Source of the DNA: Candidatus Bathyarchaeota archaeon
Lineage (GTDB): Archaea; Thermoproteota; Bathyarchaeia; Bathyarchaeales; DTEX01
NCBI GenBank assembly: GCA_963714275.1
Contig: CAVQNT010000002.1
Span: 448,001 to 512,000, forward strand
Length of the DNA stretch: 64,000 bases
Direction: 5' to 3'
The position numbers and the translations under genes were made by a program. Below are positions 21,478-38,190 of the stretch, in pieces. Positions within the stretch are counted from its first letter, which is position 1, and each line of letters begins with the position of its first letter. The notes under the pieces were generated by a model, which saw only the letters and a program-made list of their open reading frames with translations, searched no databases and was not told where the DNA came from.

Positions 21478-24199
21478 ATGGCGTTAAACCTGCTAGACAC
21501 TTACATGGAGAAACCGAAAAAAGAAAAAAAGACCAGCGAACCTCAGAAAACCCCATCGGAGACTCCGGTTAATGATTCTCAAATCTCGCAGAAGTCAGAA
21601 GAAATGGAAAGCTTATGAGGAACCAATCTTTATTGATGAACTTGTTCCGCACAACCTTCCACCGTCCTATTTGGTTTCTGCAACGTACGATGGCGAGACA
21701 AGGAAAGTCTGCCTGAAGCTTTACGAACCCCGTTCTCAGCGCATTTACCTTTGGTATGACACGCGGGGACACAAGCCGTACTGCTTCTCGAACATTCCGC
21801 CTGAGGAACTGAAGAAAATCAACCGTCTAGTAAACCAGCCTGGGTTCGACCATTTCGAGACCGAGACCAAGTATGATGCGCTGACCGACGAAAAAGTGGT
21901 CGTCACAAAAATCGTCGCGAAAGACCCACTGGCAATCGGCGGACGACCATCTGGGTGCATCAGAGACATAATCCCGGAGGATTACCCCAGAATTTTTGGT
22001 TCAGAAAAGCAACCCAAGGTTTGGGAAGCCGCGATAAAGTATTACCAGTGCTACATTAACGACGAAAAGATTTCTCCGGGCATGGTGTACAAAATCGAAA
22101 ACGGAGAACTCGTACCCGTCGTGAACAAGCAAGCTGAAGACACGGTTAACAAGATTTTGGAAACGCACTTTAAAGAAGAAACGGAGGACCTCATGCCCTA
22201 TCTGGAAACCTGGACTAGGCTCCTCGAGTATCCTGCGCCAGCGATGAGAAGGGTCGCTCTTGACATTGAGGTGTTTTCGCCGATTGCAACTAGAGTTCCA
22301 GACTCTGAGGAGACACCTTACCCCATAATCTGTGTTTCCTTGGCGGATTCAGACGGTAAGAAAAGGGTCCTGATTCTGAGGCGGGACGAGAAAAGAGGCT
22401 GAAGAGCACGATGTGAGGCTTCCGCCCGATGTTAGTGTTGAATTTTATAATTCGGAACGGGACCTTTATTCCGCCGTGTTTAGGGCTCTGGACGAGTATC
22501 CGTTTGTTTTAACCTTTAATGGAGATGACTTTGACCTTCAATACCTGTATCACAGGGCAGAAATAACTGGAATAAGAAAAGACGAGGTTCCCATAGAAGC
22601 TGGGCGAAAAGTGTTCCTTCTTAAACGGGGCGTTCACATAGACCTTTACAAGTTCTTCTTTAACCGTTCAATCCAGATTTACGCTTTCAGCCAAAAGTAC
22701 CGCAACATAACATTAGACGAGGTTTCCCAAGCCATTCTTGGAAAGTCTAAACTTCATTTTACGAAGCTCATTGGAGACCTTTCTTACGATGAGCTGGCAA
22801 AATACTGCCTCAACGACGCTGAACTGACTTTGGGTCTTACCGCGTATGAAGACGACTTGGTTATGAAGTCTCATTCTTGTCCTAGCAAGGATAAGCCGTA
22901 TGCCGATGGAAGATGTTAGCCGCCAAGGAGTTTCGCGGTGGATCAGGAGTTTCATGCAGTATGAGCACCGCAAAAACGGCATGTTGATTCCTAATCCAGA
23001 GGACATCTTAACCGTGAAGGGTACAACCGCCACAAAAGCCATAATTAAGGGAAAGAAGTACATGGGCGCCATCGTCGTTCAACCCATTCCCGGAGTACAC
23101 TTTAACGTTGCAGTTATGGACTTCCAAAGCCTGTACCCCTCAATCATAAAGGTTCACAACCTAGGTTATCAAACAGTCCGATGCCCCCACGAGGAGTGTA
23201 AGGAAAACAAGGTTCCAGGAACGCCTCACTGGGTCTGCAAGAAACACAGAGCCTTAGAAAGCGCATTGATAGGTTCTCTAAGAGACCTAAGGGTCGACTG
23301 GTATAAGCCTAAGGCAAAAGACAAATCACTCACAAGAGCCCAAAGAAACTGGTACAACGTCACCCAGAGCGCGTTGAAAGTTATTCTTAACGCTTCATAC
23401 GGGGTTTTTGGGGCGGACAGACTTTGACCTTTACTGTCCACCAGTGGCTGAAGCGACCGCGGCGATTGGGAGAAACATTATCACGCAGACCATTGATAAA
23501 GCCCGTGAACTCGGAATCCAAGTGCTTTACGGAGACACAGACAGCATTTTTCTGAAGAATCCTTCACCTGAACAGGTAAAAACCTTAACGAGCTGGTCGG
23601 AGAAGACTTTGGGCATGGAGATGGAGGTTGACAAGTTTTACCGCTACGCTGTTTTGAGTTCTCGGAAGAAGAACTACCTCGGCGTCTTCGAGGACGGAAG
23701 CGTGGACGTTAAGGGATTAACGGGCAAGAAACGGCACATTCCGCACTTAATAAAAAGATATTTTGACAAGATGGAAATCCTTTTGAGCCAAGTTAAGACG
23801 CCAGATGATTTCGAAGTCACGAAGAAGGATGTTGAAAAAATAATCCGGGAATGCTATAATATTATTAAACGGCGGGAATGGGGCAACCTGAACGATTTAG
23901 CCTTCGAAATTGTTCTCGGCAAAGTCCCTAAAGCCTACACGAAAACGACGCCTCAACACGTTAAAGCCGCGGTGCAGCTCAAAGACAAAGGCATCGAAAT
24001 CAACGCGGGCGACCTCATAAGGTTCGTTAAGGTCGCAAGGGCCCCACATGTTAAACCCATTGAACTAGCACTTGACCGAGAAATAGACACCGACAAATAC
24101 GTTGCTTACCTGCAGTCAACATTTGACCAAATTTTGGATGCTTTAGGCTTAGAGTTCGACAAAATAATCGGGCTAACCAAGCTTGAACAGTTCATGTAA
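21478..24199 (+). CDS. polB: Family B DNA polymerase (crenarchaeal PolB1-like), broken by about four indels
   Basis: ExoI DIE, ExoII FNGDDFD, ExoIII YCLND; DFQSLYPSII, KVILNASYG and YGDTDS across consecutive ORFs. Confidence 0.9.
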
Positions 24200-30726: not shown

Positions 30727-31572
30727 TTGGTGAGATTTTTGATATCATGTACATATTGCGGAGCAGAATTGGACGCAAACGCGAAGTTTTGTCCTAAATG
30801 TGGCGCAAGTGTAGCTGCCGTTCAGGCGCAGAGCATGTCCATAAAATATGAAATTAAGTATCGACCGTCGTATTCTCTGCTTGAGGTTCAACTGCCGAAT
30901 AATGGCTTCATCACAGCTGAAGCTGGTGCCATGACTTACATGAGTAGTAATGTTGAGGTAAAGACTCACACGAGGGTTGAGCAGTCAGGTCTTTTGGGCA
31001 CACTCAAGGTTTCAGTGCTTGGTGGAGAAACGCTATTTATCAATGACTTCTTTGCTCGAGGTGGAGATGCCAAAGTCGGGTTCGTTTCAGCTCCGCTTGG
31101 CGACATTACACGTTTGGAGGTTAACCAAAACAAGGGATACATCATTCAGAGCTCCGCTTACATTGCTTCTACGCCGAACGTTAAACTGGACACTCAGTGG
31201 CAGGGTTTCACGAAGGGGTTGTTTGGGCAGAACCTGTTCATGATTAAGACTTTGGGCGAGGGAGACGTTTTCGTGAATACTTTCGGAGCTATAGACAAGC
31301 ATGATTTGGGACCTGGCGAAAAATTGATTGTTGATAACTTTCATTTGGCTGCCCTAAGCACGACTTGCCAGTATCAAGTTAGAATGTTCGGAGGACTCAA
31401 GTCCACATTGCTGGGCGGAGAAGGGCTCATAACGGAAGTGACTGGACCCGGAGAAATCTACGTTCAAACCAAGAACCCTCGTGAATTTGCAGACTGGCTT
31501 TGGAGATACATAGGTCCAAAGGTTCACGGTGCTGCTCAAAGGACAAAAGGAATACACTTCGGAATGGGATAA
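30727..31572 (+). CDS. Zinc-ribbon + AIM24/TIGR00266 family protein
   Basis: CTYC...CPKC; AEAGAM, GGETLF, VDNFH, GGEGL, GPGEIYVQT. Confidence 0.85.
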   Translation: MVRFLISCTYCGAELDANAKFCPKCGASVAAVQAQSMSIKYEIKYRPSYSLLEVQLPNNGFITAEAGAMTYMSSNVEVKTHTRVEQSGLLGTLKVSVLGGETLFINDFFARGGDAKVGFVSAPLGDITRLEVNQNKGYIIQSSAYIASTPNVKLDTQWQGFTKGLFGQNLFMIKTLGEGDVFVNTFGAIDKHDLGPGEKLIVDNFHLAALSTTCQYQVRMFGGLKSTLLGGEGLITEVTGPGEIYVQTKNPREFADWLWRYIGPKVHGAAQRTKGIHFGMG

Positions 31573-31680
31573 CCAAAGATTCTTATTTTTTTCTCCGAAT
31601 TAGTTTTTTCTTTTTGTTTCTGAATTAAATGTTTTATGTCTAACTGCTGAAATGATAATTTGAATTAGAGGTGGTGCTGT

Positions 31681-32497
31681 TTGTCGGTTAATGTTCCATT
31701 CTTGGCGGTGATTGGTCGCAAGCATTCTGGGAAAACAACCGTGGTCGAAGGGTTAGTGGCTAATTTTGTGAAGAAAGGATTACGGGTTGCCACGGTTAAA
31801 CATGTCAGCCAAAGCGGCTTCTCGATGGACTCTGAAGGAAAGGACACGTGGAGGCACTCGGTTGCAGGAGCCAATCCGGTGATACTAGTTTCGGACAAGG
31901 AGATGACCATAAAAATTAGGGACGGAGCATCGGTGTCGCTGGGCACCTTGTCAAAAATAGCGGAGGAAAACAAGGCTAACGTCATCATAATTGAGGGTCA
32001 TTCATTTATTGTCCTCAAAGACAAAAGGGTGGGCAAAATAGTGTGCGTAAGAAGCAAAGAAGAATACAACGAGTTCAAAGAAAACGCTATCGGCGAAGTT
32101 CTAGCATACTGCTCAATTCAGCCTATTGAGGAGCAAGTCTTAAACACAAAAACTGGTCTGTCCGTCATGACGGAAAAGGCAACAATTTTCATCGAAAAAA
32201 GCCAGAAAATCATTGAGATACAAAAGCAGCTGTTCGGTTTGGATTGTCAAAAATGCGGCAAAGCGACGTGCTGGGAGCTGGCTGATGCCATTTATAGAGG
32301 CGAAGCTGAAGCTCGAAGAGTGCTTCCCGTTAAAAACCAAACATGAACTCAAAGCTACAATCATAGTTAAAAACGCCGAGGTTCCGGTTCAACCCTTCAT
32401 CGCTGAAATTGTGCGAAAAACGGTTCTCGGCATGATTTCAACCCTAAAAGGAGTCGACATCAAAGGCGAAGAACAAATCTACATAAAAATATCGTAA
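31681..32497 (+). CDS. mobB: MobB with C-terminal Fe-S domain (frameshift near 32310)
   Basis: GRKHSGKTT, TVKH, GKDTWRH; DCQKCGKATC...C; ...PFIAEIVRKTVLGMISTLKG. Confidence 0.85.
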
Positions 32498-32600
32498 AGT
32501 ATCCCGTATTTACTGCATCTACTTGAAAATACAAAAAATCCCTTGGTACCGAACCAAAATTTAGTTTGGTTTACTACATAGTTACATTAAAATAAGATGT

Positions 32601-32712
32601 TTAAGAATGGGTGGAAGTTAGACCATCAAGACCTTGATTAACGAAGCCTTACTATTCGCCAAATTTCTAAGGCATGAACGAGAAACATGGAAACCAAGAA
32701 TAACTATTCTTA
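32601..32712 (+). pseudogene. Gene-tail remnant 1, probable solo-cas1 C-terminus
   Basis: Translates LRMGGS*TIKTLINE-ALLFAKFLRHERETWKPRITIL; about 75% nt identity (77/102, hand count) to remnant 2. Confidence 0.7.
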
Positions 32713-32788
32713 AGCTAATGCTTTTATTATATTTAATAATAAGAAAATCGTAAGCAGGCAACTGCCATATATTTAGGAGAAGGCAGAT

Positions 32789-33538
32789 TTGTCTCGAAAG
32801 AAAGAGAAAAAGCGAACAAAAACAGATTTGTTTCAAGAAAAAGGAAAAAAGCAGACTAACGTCTTGATTTTTTCCATATTGCTTTTAGTAGTTGGTTTAG
32901 TAGCATTTGGAAGTGGCTTATTTCAGATATACCAATCAAGAGCAACTGAACTAGTAGTTTATTCAGTGACTAAACCTTGCAAAGCATATGACCAAAATGG
33001 CGAATTGGCAGCGTGGGTAAATGTAACAATGACGACCAATGTATCCGTTCCCCAACCAAGTATTCCAGTAAACATAACATTGCAAGTGAGAGGGATTTAT
33101 GTCCCTTCTGGCAATTGGACATATGCTTATTTGGAGGGAGCTACAGCTGCATTTCCAAATAAAGAACCTCATGACTGGAATCATGAAGTCAAGAGCGTCA
33201 TTGTTCTTAAACAGTTGAATGAATACTCTTTTGACTACATTGGTAGTAGAATCATGAATTATACATATGGAGGAACTTGGAACATCTATATACAAGTGGT
33301 CAGTGATACAATCTTTATTGTTAATAATATTCCTCCAAACCCAACGAATCTCCCTATGGCAATATATACTGTACCAAATGCTGTTGATATTGCCTCAGCG
33401 GAATATATTGCGCAGATGAAAGCTTCGGAGGAATCCACAAAAACTACTGCCTTTTGGTCAGGCATTGCATTAGTGGTTGCTGGTTTAAGTTCAATTATCA
33501 CAACAATTATCACCTATTATCAATACAAGTATAGGTGA
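32789..33538 (+). CDS. Hypothetical 2-TM membrane protein with extracellular beta-rich domain
   Basis: N- and C-terminal TM helices; sequons NVT, NVS, NIT, NWT, NYT; AT-rich. Confidence 0.7.
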   Translation: MSRKKEKKRTKTDLFQEKGKKQTNVLIFSILLLVVGLVAFGSGLFQIYQSRATELVVYSVTKPCKAYDQNGELAAWVNVTMTTNVSVPQPSIPVNITLQVRGIYVPSGNWTYAYLEGATAAFPNKEPHDWNHEVKSVIVLKQLNEYSFDYIGSRIMNYTYGGTWNIYIQVVSDTIFIVNNIPPNPTNLPMAIYTVPNAVDIASAEYIAQMKASEESTKTTAFWSGIALVVAGLSSIITTIITYYQYKYR

Positions 33539-33560
33539 TATATTGAGTTTTAGCATATAA

Positions 33561-33804
33561 TTTGTGCGTGTTTTGTGTCTCTGTCTGTGGGGCATGGATG
33601 GGTGAGAGAGTGAGAGCGTCCGAGGGTGGCAGAGAAAGATTAAAATTTAATCCCCAAACCCAAACCCAAACCCAAACACACACAGACATTAATTAACTAT
33701 CATTAACTCTTACTCTCTCTCTTTCTTTCCCCCTGTGTGTGTCGGTCAGTCAGAGTCAGTCAGTCAGAGAGTCAGTCACACACGCACAAACAAACACACA
33801 CACA
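33561..33804. repeat. Low-complexity, quasi-symmetric spacer: inverted end motifs, palindrome, (CCCAAA)4, GTCA/CA/CT runs
   Basis: TTTGTGCGTGT 33561-33571 inverted at 33780-33790; GATTAAA-A-TTTAATC 33638-33652; (CCCAAA)4 33653-33676. Confidence 0.85.
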
Positions 33805-33912
33805 TTAGCATTTCAACAAGTTAATCTCACTTTCCAAAAGAAAATCATGCAACTCAGAAAAAGGCACAGTTTCAATAAGCGCGTCACCAAAATCTAATTT
33901 TCTGTCTTCAAG

Positions 33913-35450
33913 TTAACTCTTTTTTAAAAGTATTATTCTTCCCTTCAACCCTTCTAATGTTGTCATGAAAAGCAAAACAATATCATCCACCTGTCTTAAT
34001 GTAAGAGCATTCATAATAGCATCTTTTAGTTTTTCCTCGTTTAACCATGTAGCTTCATGGTGAGGGATTGGTCGTTGTTTTAGAGAATCAACTTTGATTG
34101 CTATTATATCATGAATTTGATCCTGTGCACTTTCAATTGAACTTAGGAGGTTGTATGAACTAGCTCTTTTCACTTCTACCTTTTTATCGTTTATTGTCAA
34201 ATCGGGATGTTTGCCAAGTCTTACCTCAAGTCCATAGGATTTCGATATTCTCGCAAGGTAGCATTCTGAGGAAACATTGTATAGGTATTTTCTAAGTTCT
34301 TGGGTTGTCAAAATACCGTTCCAAATCCTTTTCTTCTCCCACTTCTGAAAGCTTTTAATATGTCCTCTAATTTCTTCTCCAAACTCTTCTATCTTGGGAG
34401 TTACGTTGATACCTAAAGATTCAAGTCTTCGAAGATTAATTGCAAGATTAAAGATGTAAACGTCTATTCCTTCTTCGATTCCAGTTTTAAGTATTATAAT
34501 AAGCGAACTTGTTTCAAGAGCCATCTGTAAAATCTCTGAATCTACATGAGTTTTTTCTAACAACCAATTCCATGACTCCACTACCTCTTGAATGCTCTGA
34601 GCCCCCAAGTATTCAGGGTTATACAAGATATGACCCAGACCGACGAAGTTCCCCTCGACCTTGAGACCAAATGAATCAAAATTTACTTCAATTTTTCCTT
34701 CTGTTTCTCTAAAGAGTTTCCCTATATCAAACTTCGCAATTTCTTTACCTTCATTATCTCTCAAGATTGATGGCTTTTTTTGGTTTAAAGCATTCCACAT
34801 ATTTTTGAAAAACCTTTCCTCGTTCCGTTCTCTTTCCTTTGATGTTGCCCTGATTTCTAGCTCAAAATTCTGAGATTCTACTGAATGTGCTTCCAAGTAA
34901 GAAAGAAGTATTCGATTCTCAAGGATACCGTCATCAAGCATCTTTCCAATGAAATCTTTACCAACCCTAAATTGGTAAATGTGTATTAGTTCAAGAATAA
35001 AAATCGCTAATCGTTCGGCATCTAATGAAAATATAAGTGGTCGGCTTAAGAGACTAATGGACTTCTGATTAACCTCTCTGAAAAGGTCTTCGGTTCTACT
35101 TTCACTCATTAAAACAACATTGTCAAAATTTATGAAACCCTTTTCTACAACCAACCTCTTTGTTTCGGGGTATTTTTTTAACCGCCTCTTTCTTTTAAGT
35201 GTCTCAGCAACGTACAAATTGAGATAGTCAGCTCTTCCCAAGCTTTGACTTCTTTAGACTTGAAGTCTTTAAGATTTAGCATGTCCAAATGAGAGTAGGC
35301 TTGCCATTCTTCTTTTCCCAGAAGTTCCCATCGTATTTTAGGTGTTTCTTTAGTGCGCAATAAGGCATTATGATTTATGTATCCTCTCTCAAACAGTTCA
35401 CATCCGACAAAGTACCATAGATCATTAGAGATAACAATTCTTTTTGCCAT
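33913..35450 (-). CDS. ~510-aa protein with C-terminal PD-(D/E)XK nuclease-like domain (frameshift near 35240)
   Basis: ORFs 35178..35450 and 33913..35241 join; SECYLA...HPDLTINDKKVEVKR motif. Confidence 0.65.
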
Positions 35451-35583
35451 ATGTCTATAAGTATAGGTTCAGTTTATCTAAAACTTTTTCTTATCACCAT
35501 ATGACTGTGCCGCGATAAGCCTTACTAAGAAACAATTCCATTCAAAACATAAACCTATTATTCTTGTGTCGACAAAAGATTTT

Positions 35584-35703
35584 CTATAGAGATGCAATTC
35601 TTGGAATCCATATTTCTCGTTCACGTCTTAGAAACTTGGCAAATAGGAGAGCCTCTTCATTGATCAAGGTTTCAATAGTCTGCCTTTTACTTACTCTTAT
35701 CCT
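35584..35703 (-). pseudogene. Gene-tail remnant 2, probable solo-cas1 C-terminus
   Basis: Translates RIRVSKRQTIETLINEEALLFAKFLRREREIWIPRIASL*; no upstream gene body. Confidence 0.75.
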
Positions 35704-36363
35704 TATTTTATATTTGTCTATGTCCTTTCATTTAACCTGACAATGCCTGCCTTTTTCTATCGTCTCATAATTTTATCGCTGTCTCCATTGCATGTTGTAG
35801 ATCTTTTGCCAACTCTGAAAGTCTGTCCTCAACCCTTCAATAACTCTCTTTTGTTCCATCACTTCTCTCTGGAGTTCTTGAACCTATTTGTATTATATAT
35901 CTTCCATTCTCCACTAAAAAAAATTTAATTTCTAGAGTAAAATAAACCGATAAATGATGTGAATAAGATATTCTATCTCATTAACGTTTTAAGAAAATTA
36001 TATAGATTTTTTCTAATAAAATATTTCTTTATAAAGAAAAAAATTGCATAACTTTTTTATTCAAACAGTGTTTGTGCCCCAAAATAACAGAACGAATGCG
36101 CCGTAAAACAGAACAGGTCTTCTCGGATTATCGAGTGTTACACAAAATTGAAAACCAGTTGTTACACAAATCAAATTAGCCTATATAATAGGCTTGAACC
36201 TAAATTAGCAAAATTTCCGAAAACAGACACATTAGGACATGATCAATAACTAAAAAAACAGGCATCATGGTTTAGTTCATGAAAAAGTTAATATCCCTCT
36301 TGTATGAATGAATGAGGTCAAAACAATGAAGGGTTCGTTCACAGAACCCGAATGGTGTAACGG

Positions 36364-38190
36364 ATGAGTGTAGCTAAGCCTGTTCTTTCGTATGCAAAAT
36401 CAATTAAAACGCAGGCTGAGCTTTCACGTTCAGTCGAAGCCTTCAAACGACTGCTAAAGTATCAAAAATCATATGTTCACTTCATAATTTCTATTGTAAT
36501 ATTATCCATTTTCAGGTCATATTTGTTCACGCTTGAACCCCTCTACACTTCGGACATAATAGACCAAGTCATCATCGCGGGACACGAAGAACTGCTGTTT
36601 GACTTGGTAATGAAAATTATGGTCACCATGATAATTTTCGGAATACTAAACCTCATCATAGGCTACATCCACGGCTACTTCGCCCAGATGGTAACCCGAG
36701 ATGTCAGGTCCGACTATTACTCCTCGCTTCAAAGCAAATCCTTCAACTTCTACGATTCAACAGCGGTCGGCGACCTAGTCTCACGAGCAACAATGGACCT
36801 GCAAGTAGTCGGAGACTTCCTCAGAACATGGGTCAGTGTCATATCCAACGCGGTCTTCACCATCCTAATCGTCTTCACAATCATGTACTCAATAAGCCCA
36901 ACCATGAGCCTAATTTCCATGGTACCTATGATCCCAATTTTCTACCTCACGACTCAGCTCTGGATAAAAACCATGCCGATGTTCAGAAAAATGATGCTCA
37001 TACTCGGAAGACTCGGCGCATACGTCCAACAGAACATCATAGGCATGAAAGTAGTAAGAATCTTCCAAAGAGAACACGAAATGGAAGACGGCTTCAAACA
37101 GGTCGAACAAATATTCGTCGACACAGCAATAGGCGCAGGCAAAATCCAGTCAAAATACATGCCTTCTGGACAAGCCATCCTGACCCTCGGCATCACAATG
37201 GTTTACGTTTACGCTGGGTCACTGATAGCTTCGCCCTCAACAATGTTCACGATAGGCCAGCTCACACTCTTCGTAAGATACATGATGAGACTCAGTTTTC
37301 CCCTACGAGACCTAAGCATGCTCTCAGGAACATGGATAAACGCCTCAGCAGGGCTCGAAAGAGTCTACGAAATGATGGACACACCCGTCGACGTTGAAGA
37401 CAAACCTGACGCACAAGACATCACAATAGAAAAAGGCGAAGTCGAATTCAGAAACGTAACCTTCGGATACGACAAAGAAAAACCCGTACTCAAGAACCTA
37501 AACTTTACAGTCAAACCCGGAGAAAAAATCGCAATCCTAGGAGCCACAGGCTCAGGAAAAACATCGCTCATATTCGACATCCCAAGATTCTACGACGTCA
37601 ATTCAGGAAGCATCCTCATCGACGGTGTAGATATTAGACGGTTCAAACTCACATCGCTAAGGAGGCAAATGGGAATCGTTCTACAGGACGTGTTCATGTT
37701 CACAGGAACAATCAAAGACAACATTGCATTCGGCAAACCAGACGCGTCAATGGACGAAATCATACGCGCAGCGGAACACGCGAAAATACACGACTTCATA
37801 CAATCACTGCCCGAAGGATACGAAACCGCCGTCGGAGAACGGGGCATAACCCTGTCAGGCGGACAAAGACAAAGACTGACCATTGCGAGGGCACTCTTAA
37901 CAAATCCAAAGATACTGATACTCGACGATTCCCTATCGTTTGTTGACGCAAAAACAGAACAGCAAATCCAGGACGCCATCGAAGAAGCCATGAAGGGCAG
38001 AACCTGCTTCATAATAGCACAACGGCTTTCGACAATAAAAGACGCCGACAAAATCATGGTCCTAGACAACGGCGAAATAGCCGAGTTCGGAACACACGAC
38101 GAACTCATAACCAAAGGAAAAATCTACCACAGAATCTACCAAACGCAGTTCCTAGAGAAAGCCCCAGAAGAAATCTTGGAGGTCGGGTGA
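36364..38190 (+). CDS. Type IV ABC exporter half (TMD-NBD), subunit 1
   Basis: GATGSGKT, LSGGQRQR, degenerate Walker B ILDD. Confidence 0.9.
   Translation: MSVAKPVLSYAKSIKTQAELSRSVEAFKRLLKYQKSYVHFIISIVILSIFRSYLFTLEPLYTSDIIDQVIIAGHEELLFDLVMKIMVTMIIFGILNLIIGYIHGYFAQMVTRDVRSDYYSSLQSKSFNFYDSTAVGDLVSRATMDLQVVGDFLRTWVSVISNAVFTILIVFTIMYSISPTMSLISMVPMIPIFYLTTQLWIKTMPMFRKMMLILGRLGAYVQQNIIGMKVVRIFQREHEMEDGFKQVEQIFVDTAIGAGKIQSKYMPSGQAILTLGITMVYVYAGSLIASPSTMFTIGQLTLFVRYMMRLSFPLRDLSMLSGTWINASAGLERVYEMMDTPVDVEDKPDAQDITIEKGEVEFRNVTFGYDKEKPVLKNLNFTVKPGEKIAILGATGSGKTSLIFDIPRFYDVNSGSILIDGVDIRRFKLTSLRRQMGIVLQDVFMFTGTIKDNIAFGKPDASMDEIIRAAEHAKIHDFIQSLPEGYETAVGERGITLSGGQRQRLTIARALLTNPKILILDDSLSFVDAKTEQQIQDAIEEAMKGRTCFIIAQRLSTIKDADKIMVLDNGEIAEFGTHDELITKGKIYHRIYQTQFLEKAPEEILEVG

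Follow-up and report, generated by a model that had tools for sequence, protein, structure and literature searches.

Cargo genes behind truncated cas1 tails in a Bathyarchaeia genome: probable remnants of casposon-like transposons without a family B polymerase

A 64,000-nt stretch of a Candidatus Bathyarchaeota archaeon genome (contig CAVQNT010000002.1, positions 448,001 to 512,000; hereafter the window) contains two modules, A and B, that converge on a single 15-nt quasi-palindrome (the 15-mer). Both modules run in the same order, from the tail of a cas1 gene through an AT-rich spacer and an unrelated gene (the cargo) to a GT-rich motif, a C-poor arm, and the palindrome, and the two right arms face each other across the one 15-mer. 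This arrangement raises the question of whether the modules are working gene cassettes, as an earlier note on this DNA had proposed, or the remains of larger mobile elements. Our analysis indicates that they are most likely derived from Cas1-encoding transposons, as cargo-bearing fossils rather than a working cassette shuttle, and we assign a probability of roughly 60% to the reading that the locus represents two decayed right-hand halves of casposon-like transposons without a family B DNA polymerase (PolB). The placement of the remnants, the genes, the palindrome at 33638-33652, and the end motif in the earlier note held up, and the features of the locus are as follows.

32565-32712 (approximate start), + strand: cas1 remnant A, a pseudogene of the last ~45-60 codons (translation, tblastn, nhmmer)
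32713-32788, + strand: spacer A, AT-rich, from tail A to cargo gene A (sequence)
32789-33538, + strand: cargo gene A, 249 aa (list of open reading frames, ORFs), with hydrophobic stretches near both ends
33561-33637, + strand: right arm A, the GT motif TTTGTGCGTGT and then a C-poor, GA-rich low-complexity stretch into the 15-mer
33638-33652, strand not applicable: the 15-nt quasi-palindrome GATTAAAATTTAATC, the single target copy common to both elements
33653-33800, - strand: right arm B, the GT motif (~33790-33800), GTCA/GA repeats, and (GGGTTT)n into the 15-mer
35450-33913, - strand: cargo gene B, ORFs 35450-35178 (90 aa) and 35241-33913 (442 aa), with a frameshift near 35231
35451-35583, - strand: spacer B, from tail B to cargo gene B (sequence)
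35712-35584, - strand: cas1 remnant B, the last ~42 codons, open to the stop (translation, tblastn)

The genome that holds the window is referred to as G000 (2.64 Mb in 10 contigs, numbered from C1; 91% complete). Using the remnant peptide as a tblastn query against G000 (E ≤ 0.05), we found 33 tail sites, well beyond the two copies in the window, and only 2 of them are the ends of intact cas1 genes (C4:100201-101235 and C7:144190-145224, 344 aa each). A third full-length copy, at C2:934184-935189, is frameshifted. The two intact genes match Pfam Cas_Cas1 (PF01867; E values of 3e-41 and 8e-46; 141.8 and 156.9 bits, with a cut-off of 22.3) and TIGR00287 (139.2 and 160.7 bits, with a cut-off of 71.7) over residues 10-335, confirming the earlier recognition of the peptide as the extreme C terminus of Cas1, and they fall far under the cut-offs of every CRISPR-subtype model. 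The motifs EGK, GFLH, and CDFQELYR, which we take to carry the catalytic Glu, His, and Asp/Glu of Cas1, line up with the solved Cas1 4n06 in one alignment checked by eye. By sequence score, the protein matches the CRISPR Cas1 4n06 at E 2e-20 and 6opm, a 431-aa Cas1 that is presumably a casposase, at E 4e-13.

We found no CRISPR array in G000 (exact 20-mers, at least 3 units) and no Cas2 above the cut-off in this 91% complete genome, where the best PF09827 match has an E value of 0.21; these data agree with the description of this Cas1 as CRISPR-less. A scan of one genome per species gave 57 related cas1 loci, nearly all in Bathyarchaeia and 27 of them with a full-length or near full-length gene, and none has an array (14-mers), the same script having detected the arrays beside the canonical cas1 of the relative G018. 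A link between the 15-mer and local CRISPR repeats was considered and rejected, as the G018 arrays have unrelated repeats. At E ≤ 1e-20 the Cas1 clade comprises 2,238 proteins, most of them encoded on short contigs, and public records give them no label beyond "CRISPR-associated endonuclease Cas1"; the best 120 of these are 65-82% identical to the query, and the few source names among those 120 are Bathyarchaeia or Bathyarchaeota and one Hodarchaeales.

All three full-length cas1 copies of G000 sit between two 15-mers, with terminal inverted repeats (TIRs) just inside them.

C4:99114-105173, 6.06 kb: C4 element, TIR of 133 nt, near-perfect
C2:931101-937520, 6.42 kb: C2 element, TIR of ~125 nt
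C7:143209-147639, 4.43 kb: C7 element, TIR of ~65 nt, imperfect

The same layout, with inverted pairs of 32-188 nt flanking cas1, was observed at 11 of the 27 full-length loci of other Bathyarchaeia genomes. The 14 TIR-bounded elements span 3.6-12.6 kb, and every one contains cas1, frameshifted in several. The 15-mers outside the TIRs fit a direct repeat better than an inverted one in 13 of the 14, with 10 mismatches summed over all elements in the direct orientation versus 41 in the inverted, and in 8 elements the direct copies have no mismatch at all. At two loci (L049 and L056) the 15-mer is clearly not a palindrome, and its copies on the two sides are identical. Direct repeats in this position are the signature of a target-site duplication (TSD) of ~15 bp at a preferred target. 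The presence of both TIRs and a 15-bp duplication supports, for the parent elements, the casposon-like character suggested from the window alone.

In intact elements, cas1 is located close to the right end and points outwards. Beyond it come 0-4 cargo genes, then the GT motif and the arm, and finally the 15-mer. In those of G000, cas1 is 1.0-2.3 kb from the right 15-mer, with the cargo between, and in the relative G001 the arm begins within ~110 nt after cas1, with no cargo. None of the 14 elements contains a PolB-sized gene; the largest ORF is 531 aa, the 11 elements from outside G000 being judged by ORF size only. Protein-primed PolB (PF03175) has no match in G000, and the PF00136 matches in that genome (C7:153900, C2:470903, and C3:240001) all lie outside the elements. 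The one at C2:470903-472097 is in the window (22903-24097), ~9 kb upstream of the cas1-tail locus, where a family B DNA polymerase is present as two adjacent ORFs of 186 and 273 aa that cover PF00136 positions 2-171 and 166-429. Of the 20 matches to the tyrosine recombinase family PF00589 in G000, none is in the window and none inside a cas1 element; a decayed tyrosine-recombinase fragment adjoins the C7 element.

Besides cas1, the elements share small proteins. An AbrB/MazE-like protein of 52-57 aa (PF04014, 31.9 bits) is common to them, a ~170-aa protein occurs in 10 of the 14 and a second type in 3 more, and a ~110-150-aa protein, whose gene adjoins that of the ~170-aa protein, occurs in 8. 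The ~170-aa family (for example L001:10617-11147, C4 element) has 378 relatives, all unannotated, with invariant His, Asp, and Arg positions, and it has no profile match in PDB, Pfam, or PHROGs. A structural model of the protein (pLDDT 87) has the uncharacterised 2atz as its best fold match (Z 8.0), no Foldseek match reaching E 0.001. Compared with primase-polymerase chains, the model gives Z scores of 5.1-5.9 over ~107-114 residues, which is within the stated noise of the tool.

Five further cas1 copies in G000 retain 214-530 nt, and the remaining 25 keep only the last ~50-140 nt. All but one of the 33 tail sequences match a cas1 3' profile (the unmatched one is a 42-nt tblastn match), and 24 start at profile positions 196-283, equivalent to cas1 nt ~895-982. 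A stop at the same Gln codon in at least 5 tails, together with frameshifts and codon deletions in several, indicates that the tails are not maintained as coding sequence. The C-terminal residues after a PR(I) motif differ between copies, and the tails are scattered on both strands, mostly far from any full cas1. A 15-mer is found within 3.5 kb downstream of 21 of the 33 tails and upstream of 12, and 15 of the 21 tails with a downstream palindrome also have the GT motif (≤2 mismatches), so that the order of cas1 tail, cargo, and end motif described for the window is a recurrent one. The view that tails in general mark left-end deletion junctions was rejected, only 5 of the 33 having a 15-mer within 250 nt upstream.

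The window modules fit this pattern. Remnant A translates as ...GGS*TIKTLINE-ALLFAKFLRHERETWKPRITIL, with an in-frame TAG in place of the Gln codon and one codon missing, and matches positions 225-342 of the cas1 3' profile (nhmmer); remnant B reads ...KRQTIETLINEEALLFAKFLRREREIWIPRIASL, then a stop codon, and matches positions 217-342. The two are alignable at the DNA level, a genome search with B recovering A at E 4e-9, and ~46 nt upstream of remnant A match the tail at C1:90017 at 91%. In element A, the GT motif and the palindrome are 77 nt apart, and the last 80 nt have a C fraction of 0.11; the corresponding values for element B are 150-154 nt and 0.01. Arms related to right arm A lie at C7:213010 and C9:4479, and the first 31-40 nt of right arm B match the arm at C7:143224. 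Outside both tails there is no arm and no 15-mer. Searches of the window found no intact cas1, CRISPR array, or tyrosine recombinase, as the earlier note had stated for an integrase, an array, and a full cas1, and positions 31500-36800 contain no tRNA and no Rfam family.

Neither cargo protein has a Pfam, PADLOC, or PHROGs match above the cut-offs (Pfam matches of A are sub-threshold only), and the ESM Atlas gave nothing usable for the window cargo and no hit for cargo B. Given that neither protein matches a family, the labels "nuclease-like" and "defence", previously attached to the cargo, are unsupported. Relative to cargo gene B, a ~91% identical metagenome contig has one additional C after 35231, indicating that the gene is frameshifted or misassembled in the window. 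Spacers A and B, between tail and cargo, are possible promoters, of archaeal type in the case of A; in a comparable trio of cassettes, described below, no part is better conserved than the spacer, at 96% in one pair.

The 15-mer itself is far more frequent in G000 than chance would give. It occurs 18 times exactly, 54 times with at most one mismatch, and 91 times with at most two, compared with 0, 0-1, and 11-13 in three shuffles, and its consensus is roughly GAYWAAA-N-TTTAATC. It is usually flanked by (GA)n or (GAA)n on one side and by (GGGTTT)n or (GT)n on the other, and arms read towards it contain 14% C versus 21.7% genome-wide. The sequence TTTGTGYGTGT (≤1 mismatch) is present in 31 of 182 palindrome arms, reading towards the palindrome, where ~1.4 would be expected, and in 2 on the opposite strand; the end motif noticed in the window is thus recurrent beside the palindrome, mostly at 70-130 nt from it. 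The sites are clustered, with 52 of 82 consecutive intervals below 10 kb and chains of up to 7 sites. The tail contains a GATTAA half-site of the target, although some tails are without it, and at two loci, C7:143209 and C2:85231 (the latter duplicated at C2:966781), exactly this 15-nt stretch of the tail is taken up by a full 15-mer instead. Among 30 relatives, the exact 15-mer occurs in only two genomes, both of the same genus, with 3 and 1 copies. Two candidates were tried and set aside: units with 15-mers on both sides have arms of different types, which are not true TIRs, and a 1,040-nt repeat holding a 15-mer (C2:300573 and C6:364727) has no target duplication.

We propose the following scheme for how such a locus could arise. 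Cas1, acting as the integrase, would join the element ends to the 15-bp quasi-palindromic target with a 15-bp stagger, so that after each insertion the element would be flanked by two copies of the 15-mer. Each of the two could be hit again, and islands of units separated by single 15-mers would build up. In the window, two elements would have inserted in opposite orientation at one site, and their right arms would share one 15-mer for that reason. The left parts, comprising the left arm, the small conserved genes, and ~900 nt of cas1, would have been lost later, so that each module would now consist of 100-150 nt from the 3' end of cas1 plus its cargo gene and right arm. The modules would then be products of truncation, and the tails would probably have no function of their own. 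Movement of the intact elements is suggested for the C4 element, whose near-perfect 133-nt repeats and identical duplications, as read from its sequence, point to recent activity.

A number of observations weigh against this scheme. No flanking inverted repeat was detected at 16 of the 27 full-length loci at the thresholds used; many of these are on short contigs, but at least 5 are long loci of 14-21 kb (L036, L040, L046, L048, and L059). At one locus, L038, the 15-mers fit an inverted repeat better than a direct one. There is no empty site for the window among the 30 relatives, where the mobB-side and ABC-side flanks lie on different contigs; the comparison of the mobB-ABC locus that the earlier note had proposed thus gave no clean empty site, because the two flanks are not syntenic in the relatives. 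Nor is there one for the 28.6-kb island on C7, whose flanks are on different contigs in 6 of 6 same-genus genomes. Contigs from 4 of 22 metagenome runs, short and of low depth, contained no joints and did not extend across the arms, and are uninformative either way. Nor does simple decay account for the distribution of truncation: 25 of the 30 truncated G000 copies keep at most 140 nt of 1,035, where uniform breakpoints would give ~4, and among truncated copies from other genomes the 3' end is retained in 32, versus 3 that lack the last 17-39 residues, in a scan whose seeds were spread along the Cas1 protein, so that N-terminal remnants could be found. Modules and arms are combined in more than one way as well. 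The outer ~90 nt beside the 15-mer are unrelated (15-34% identity) in three copies of one tail-plus-cargo module, and identical types of arm, 100-175 nt long, are found again at several loci whose interiors are unrelated.

The rest of that trio is alike: the tails agree at 79-81%, the spacers at 72-96%, the genes at 56-86%, and the inner arms at 70-84%. One pair is 96% alike in the spacer and 57-77% in the coding part. Tail-plus-cargo modules with different arms, and the same arms with different interiors, suggest that recombination has shuffled the modules. The bias to short 3' tails and the mosaic combinations of cargo and arm are outside what simple decay explains. A possible ordinary account is that selection keeps the cargo and its promoter, the selfish left part being purged and the remnant eroding.

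A rival reading that draws on these same patterns is a working cassette system, in which the cas1 tail, and perhaps the GT motif, would serve as cis signals and Cas1 or homologous recombination would swap or move modules between elements, in the manner of attC and attI in integrons. The non-random retention of short tails, the trio with its common tail, spacer, cargo, and inner arm and its differing outer arms, and the mosaic pair all point that way, as do the half-site in the tail, with a full 15-mer in exactly its place at two independent loci, and tail units bounded by 15-mers and arms on both sides, such as the 887-nt unit at C2:390545-391431. Set against this, the 5' border of the tails is a ladder over ~90 nt and not a fixed site, in contrast to the sharp 3' homology border just before the cas1 stop; stops or frameshifts disrupt many tails, some are without the half-site, and truncated copies in other genomes begin anywhere from residue 28 to 305, with 7 copies cut at both ends. 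The window modules have one arm each and nothing recognisable outside their tails, and we did not find two near-identical tail units at separate sites, each with a target duplication of its own. We regard a working cassette system as unlikely. With regard to the "Cas1-mobilised or recombination-exchanged cassettes" of the earlier note, exchange of modules by recombination, with variable cargo, is upheld; mobilisation of units made up of a tail and one end is not, given the single arm per window module and the lack of an arm or 15-mer beyond the tails, and a role of the tail as a recognition signal is unsupported, in view of its ragged 5' border and of the stops and frameshifts.

The likeness to integron cassettes is partial. 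Integrons depend on an IntI-type tyrosine recombinase and on attC sites with a characteristic folded bottom strand. The arrays described here resemble them in consisting of mostly single-gene units with a short, imperfectly palindromic site and diverse cargo of unknown kind. They differ in that no functional IntI-type tyrosine recombinase lies in or beside the units (the decayed fragment next to the C7 element being the one trace), that the 15-nt site is too short for attC and behaves as a target duplication, and that the units have inverted-repeat arms and mixed orientation.

A second alternative is that the modules were already truncated when they arose, through replicative transposition that was one-ended or abortive: copying would start at the right end and often stop early, leaving an arbitrary left junction; 5'-truncated LINEs and one-ended events of the Tn3 family are comparable. 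The 32-to-3 bias towards 5' truncation, the more frequent presence of the right arm and 15-mer than the left (21 versus 12 of 33), and the left junctions of both window modules, with neither arm nor 15-mer, are consistent with it, and the modelled ~170-aa protein, encoded by the elements, may bear a weak resemblance to primase-polymerase folds (Z 5.1-5.9 over ~110 residues). However, those fold matches are in the noise range, below the match to 2atz and with nothing at E 0.001 in Foldseek, there is no direct evidence of replication from one end, and early termination alone would not make the breakpoints pile up in the last 140 nt. We consider this alternative improbable.

Equally small is the likelihood we allow a bolder version, in which the locus would be part of a gene-scale analogue of a CRISPR array. 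Its 15-bp repeat would be duplicated with each integration, islands would grow as arrays in which cargo units alternate with repeats, and the tail modules would be functional non-autonomous cassettes, copied in a right-end-primed or one-ended fashion, possibly by the ~170-aa protein as a primase-polymerase, and exchanged at the tail and the GT motif. If true, integrons would have a counterpart built on Cas1, and the system would represent a living intermediate stage on the way from casposons to CRISPR. In CRISPR adaptation, Cas1-Cas2 inserts DNA at a short repeat that is partly palindromic, and each event duplicates the repeat, so that arrays of repeat, insert, and repeat result. A Cas1-family integrase candidate and insertion at a short, partly palindromic, duplicated repeat are common to both, whereas the elements described here have no Cas2, no leader, and no evidence of array transcription or processing, and their inserts are gene-bearing units of 0.2-8.7 kb with inverted-repeat ends, as opposed to spacers of 30-40 nt.

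That the tails are attachment-site duplications of integrase-type elements targeting the cas1 3' end, much as many archaeal integrative elements target tRNA genes, seems to us hardly credible: the sharp 3' border, the variable residues after PR(I), and the recombinase fragment beside the C7 element would suit it, but neither the window nor the units contain an integrase, the tails lie on both strands and mostly far from a full cas1, their 5' border is not fixed, and the units are bounded by arms and by a 15-mer whose behaviour is that of the cas1 elements' own target duplication.

Decay of casposon-like transposons, which we favour, calls for a comparison with the casposons already described. 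In casposons, the TIRs measure 25-602 nt, the TSD has a median length of 15 nt, and a PolB makes the elements self-synthesising (Krupovic et al. 2014, PMC4046053). Like families 1-4 in that account, the elements found here have a Cas1-family protein as the sole candidate integrase, variable cargo, insertion that prefers a site, long TIRs (65-190 nt here), and a ~15-nt target duplication. Unlike them, they have no family B polymerase in any of the 14 elements and are smaller (3.6-12.6 kb); their arms are of low complexity, C-poor, and divergent between close relatives; their target is a short quasi-palindrome and not a tRNA or gene end; and their Cas1, which TIGR00287 spans over residues 10-335 of 344, thus has no extra C-terminal domain (all relative to PMC4046053). 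A Cas1 integrase, TIRs, and a ~15-nt TSD are three of the features by which casposons are defined, and with PolB missing, these elements are not casposons in the strict sense.

In Methanosarcina, tandem casposons separated by a shared TSD and solo-TIR remnants have been described (PMC4779613). The reuse of one target, the single duplication shared by adjacent elements, and the excess of remnants over complete elements recur here; in contrast, the remnants there are solo TIRs, and those found here are right halves with cargo and a cas1 tail, in arrays of up to 7 repeats. The closest precedent is the "family 5" casposases of a 2022 study of hot springs, placed beside subtype I-A Cas1, with no PolB on most contigs and TIRs on 5 contigs, and proposed to belong to non-self-replicative transposons (PMC9755687, from the sections seen). 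They likewise combine a CRISPR-less Cas1 and conserved catalytic residues with neighbours that are hypothetical proteins; the same sections make no mention of a conserved target, a target duplication, arrays, conserved accessory genes, or truncated tails, and their samples, from hot springs (PMC9755687), contrast with the sediment, wetland, and peat under which the metagenome runs used here are listed. For the latter, the word shares are small and do not establish a habitat. Compared by description only, the Bathyarchaeia Cas1 clade may be the same as, or sister to, "family 5". Literature searches linking casposons or solo Cas1 with Bathyarchaeia or Bathyarchaeota returned nothing relevant, and neither did a cassette-oriented search; in a 2023 casposon review, the words "non-autonomous", "truncated", and "lacking" are all absent.

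Judged on genome sequence, a large Cas1 clade thus appears to drive small transposons without a polymerase, with a precise, duplicated, and reused 15-bp target that is partly palindromic. To our knowledge, all classical casposon families carry a polymerase. Casposons, of which few families are known, are the favoured ancestor of the CRISPR adaptation machinery, and a duplicated target that is reused to give repeat-separated arrays is a step that the casposon-to-CRISPR scenario needs. For annotation, neither these cas1 genes nor their many fragments should count towards CRISPR immunity when Bathyarchaeia genomes are assessed, and the islands constitute a major store of unannotated accessory genes.

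The islands also coincide with synteny breaks between close relatives. Sequence shared with relatives ends at 32497-32504 of the window and resumes at 36271-36277, and both the window island (32505-36270) and the C7 island (C7:120788-149429) lie at breaks with respect to same-genus genomes. In G001 and G003, the neighbour of the ABC gene matches G000 at C2:320-325 kb, and in G001 the neighbour of mobB matches contig C10; there is no 15-mer or tail at those places in the relatives, and none beside the C7 island flanks in the 6 same-genus genomes. The ancestral neighbour of the ABC transporter, at C2:320-325 kb, adjoins another cas1 tail in G000, at C2:327955. Together with the position of the islands at the breaks, this suggests that Cas1 elements may mediate rearrangements.

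Some further observations concern the assembly and the relatives. The start of contig C5 (C5:10-368) is a 96% identical repeat of C7:120420-120778, the last conserved gene ahead of the C7 island, and that gene is flanked in G002 and G004 by sequence matching C5:17-20 kb; the repeat is possibly an assembly alternative or a duplication at the border of the island. Between C2:~80-87 kb and C2:~965-971 kb there is a large inverted duplication that takes in a cas1 tail and two 15-mers; its stretches of 2.3-6.9 kb are 95-99% identical, and it is either recent or an assembly duplicate. G010, of the same family and 99% complete, has 21 cas1 fragments, no full-length copy with this query, and no exact 15-mer, and appears to be a genome of fossils only.

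Two repeats lie next to module B in the window. A ~110-nt dispersed intergenic repeat at 36057-36176, unrelated to the cas1 elements and matching no Rfam family or tRNA, has ~45 partial or full copies in G000 and many in G002 and G004. A ~45-nt AT-rich repeat at 35993-36040 has copies that are 88-98% identical at C2:980874, C6:489977, C6:454198, and C3:268668; it may be a further interior part of the elements or a promoter. Of its copies, one is upstream of the tail at C6:490093, at a distance of 67 nt, and one adjoins a 15-mer.

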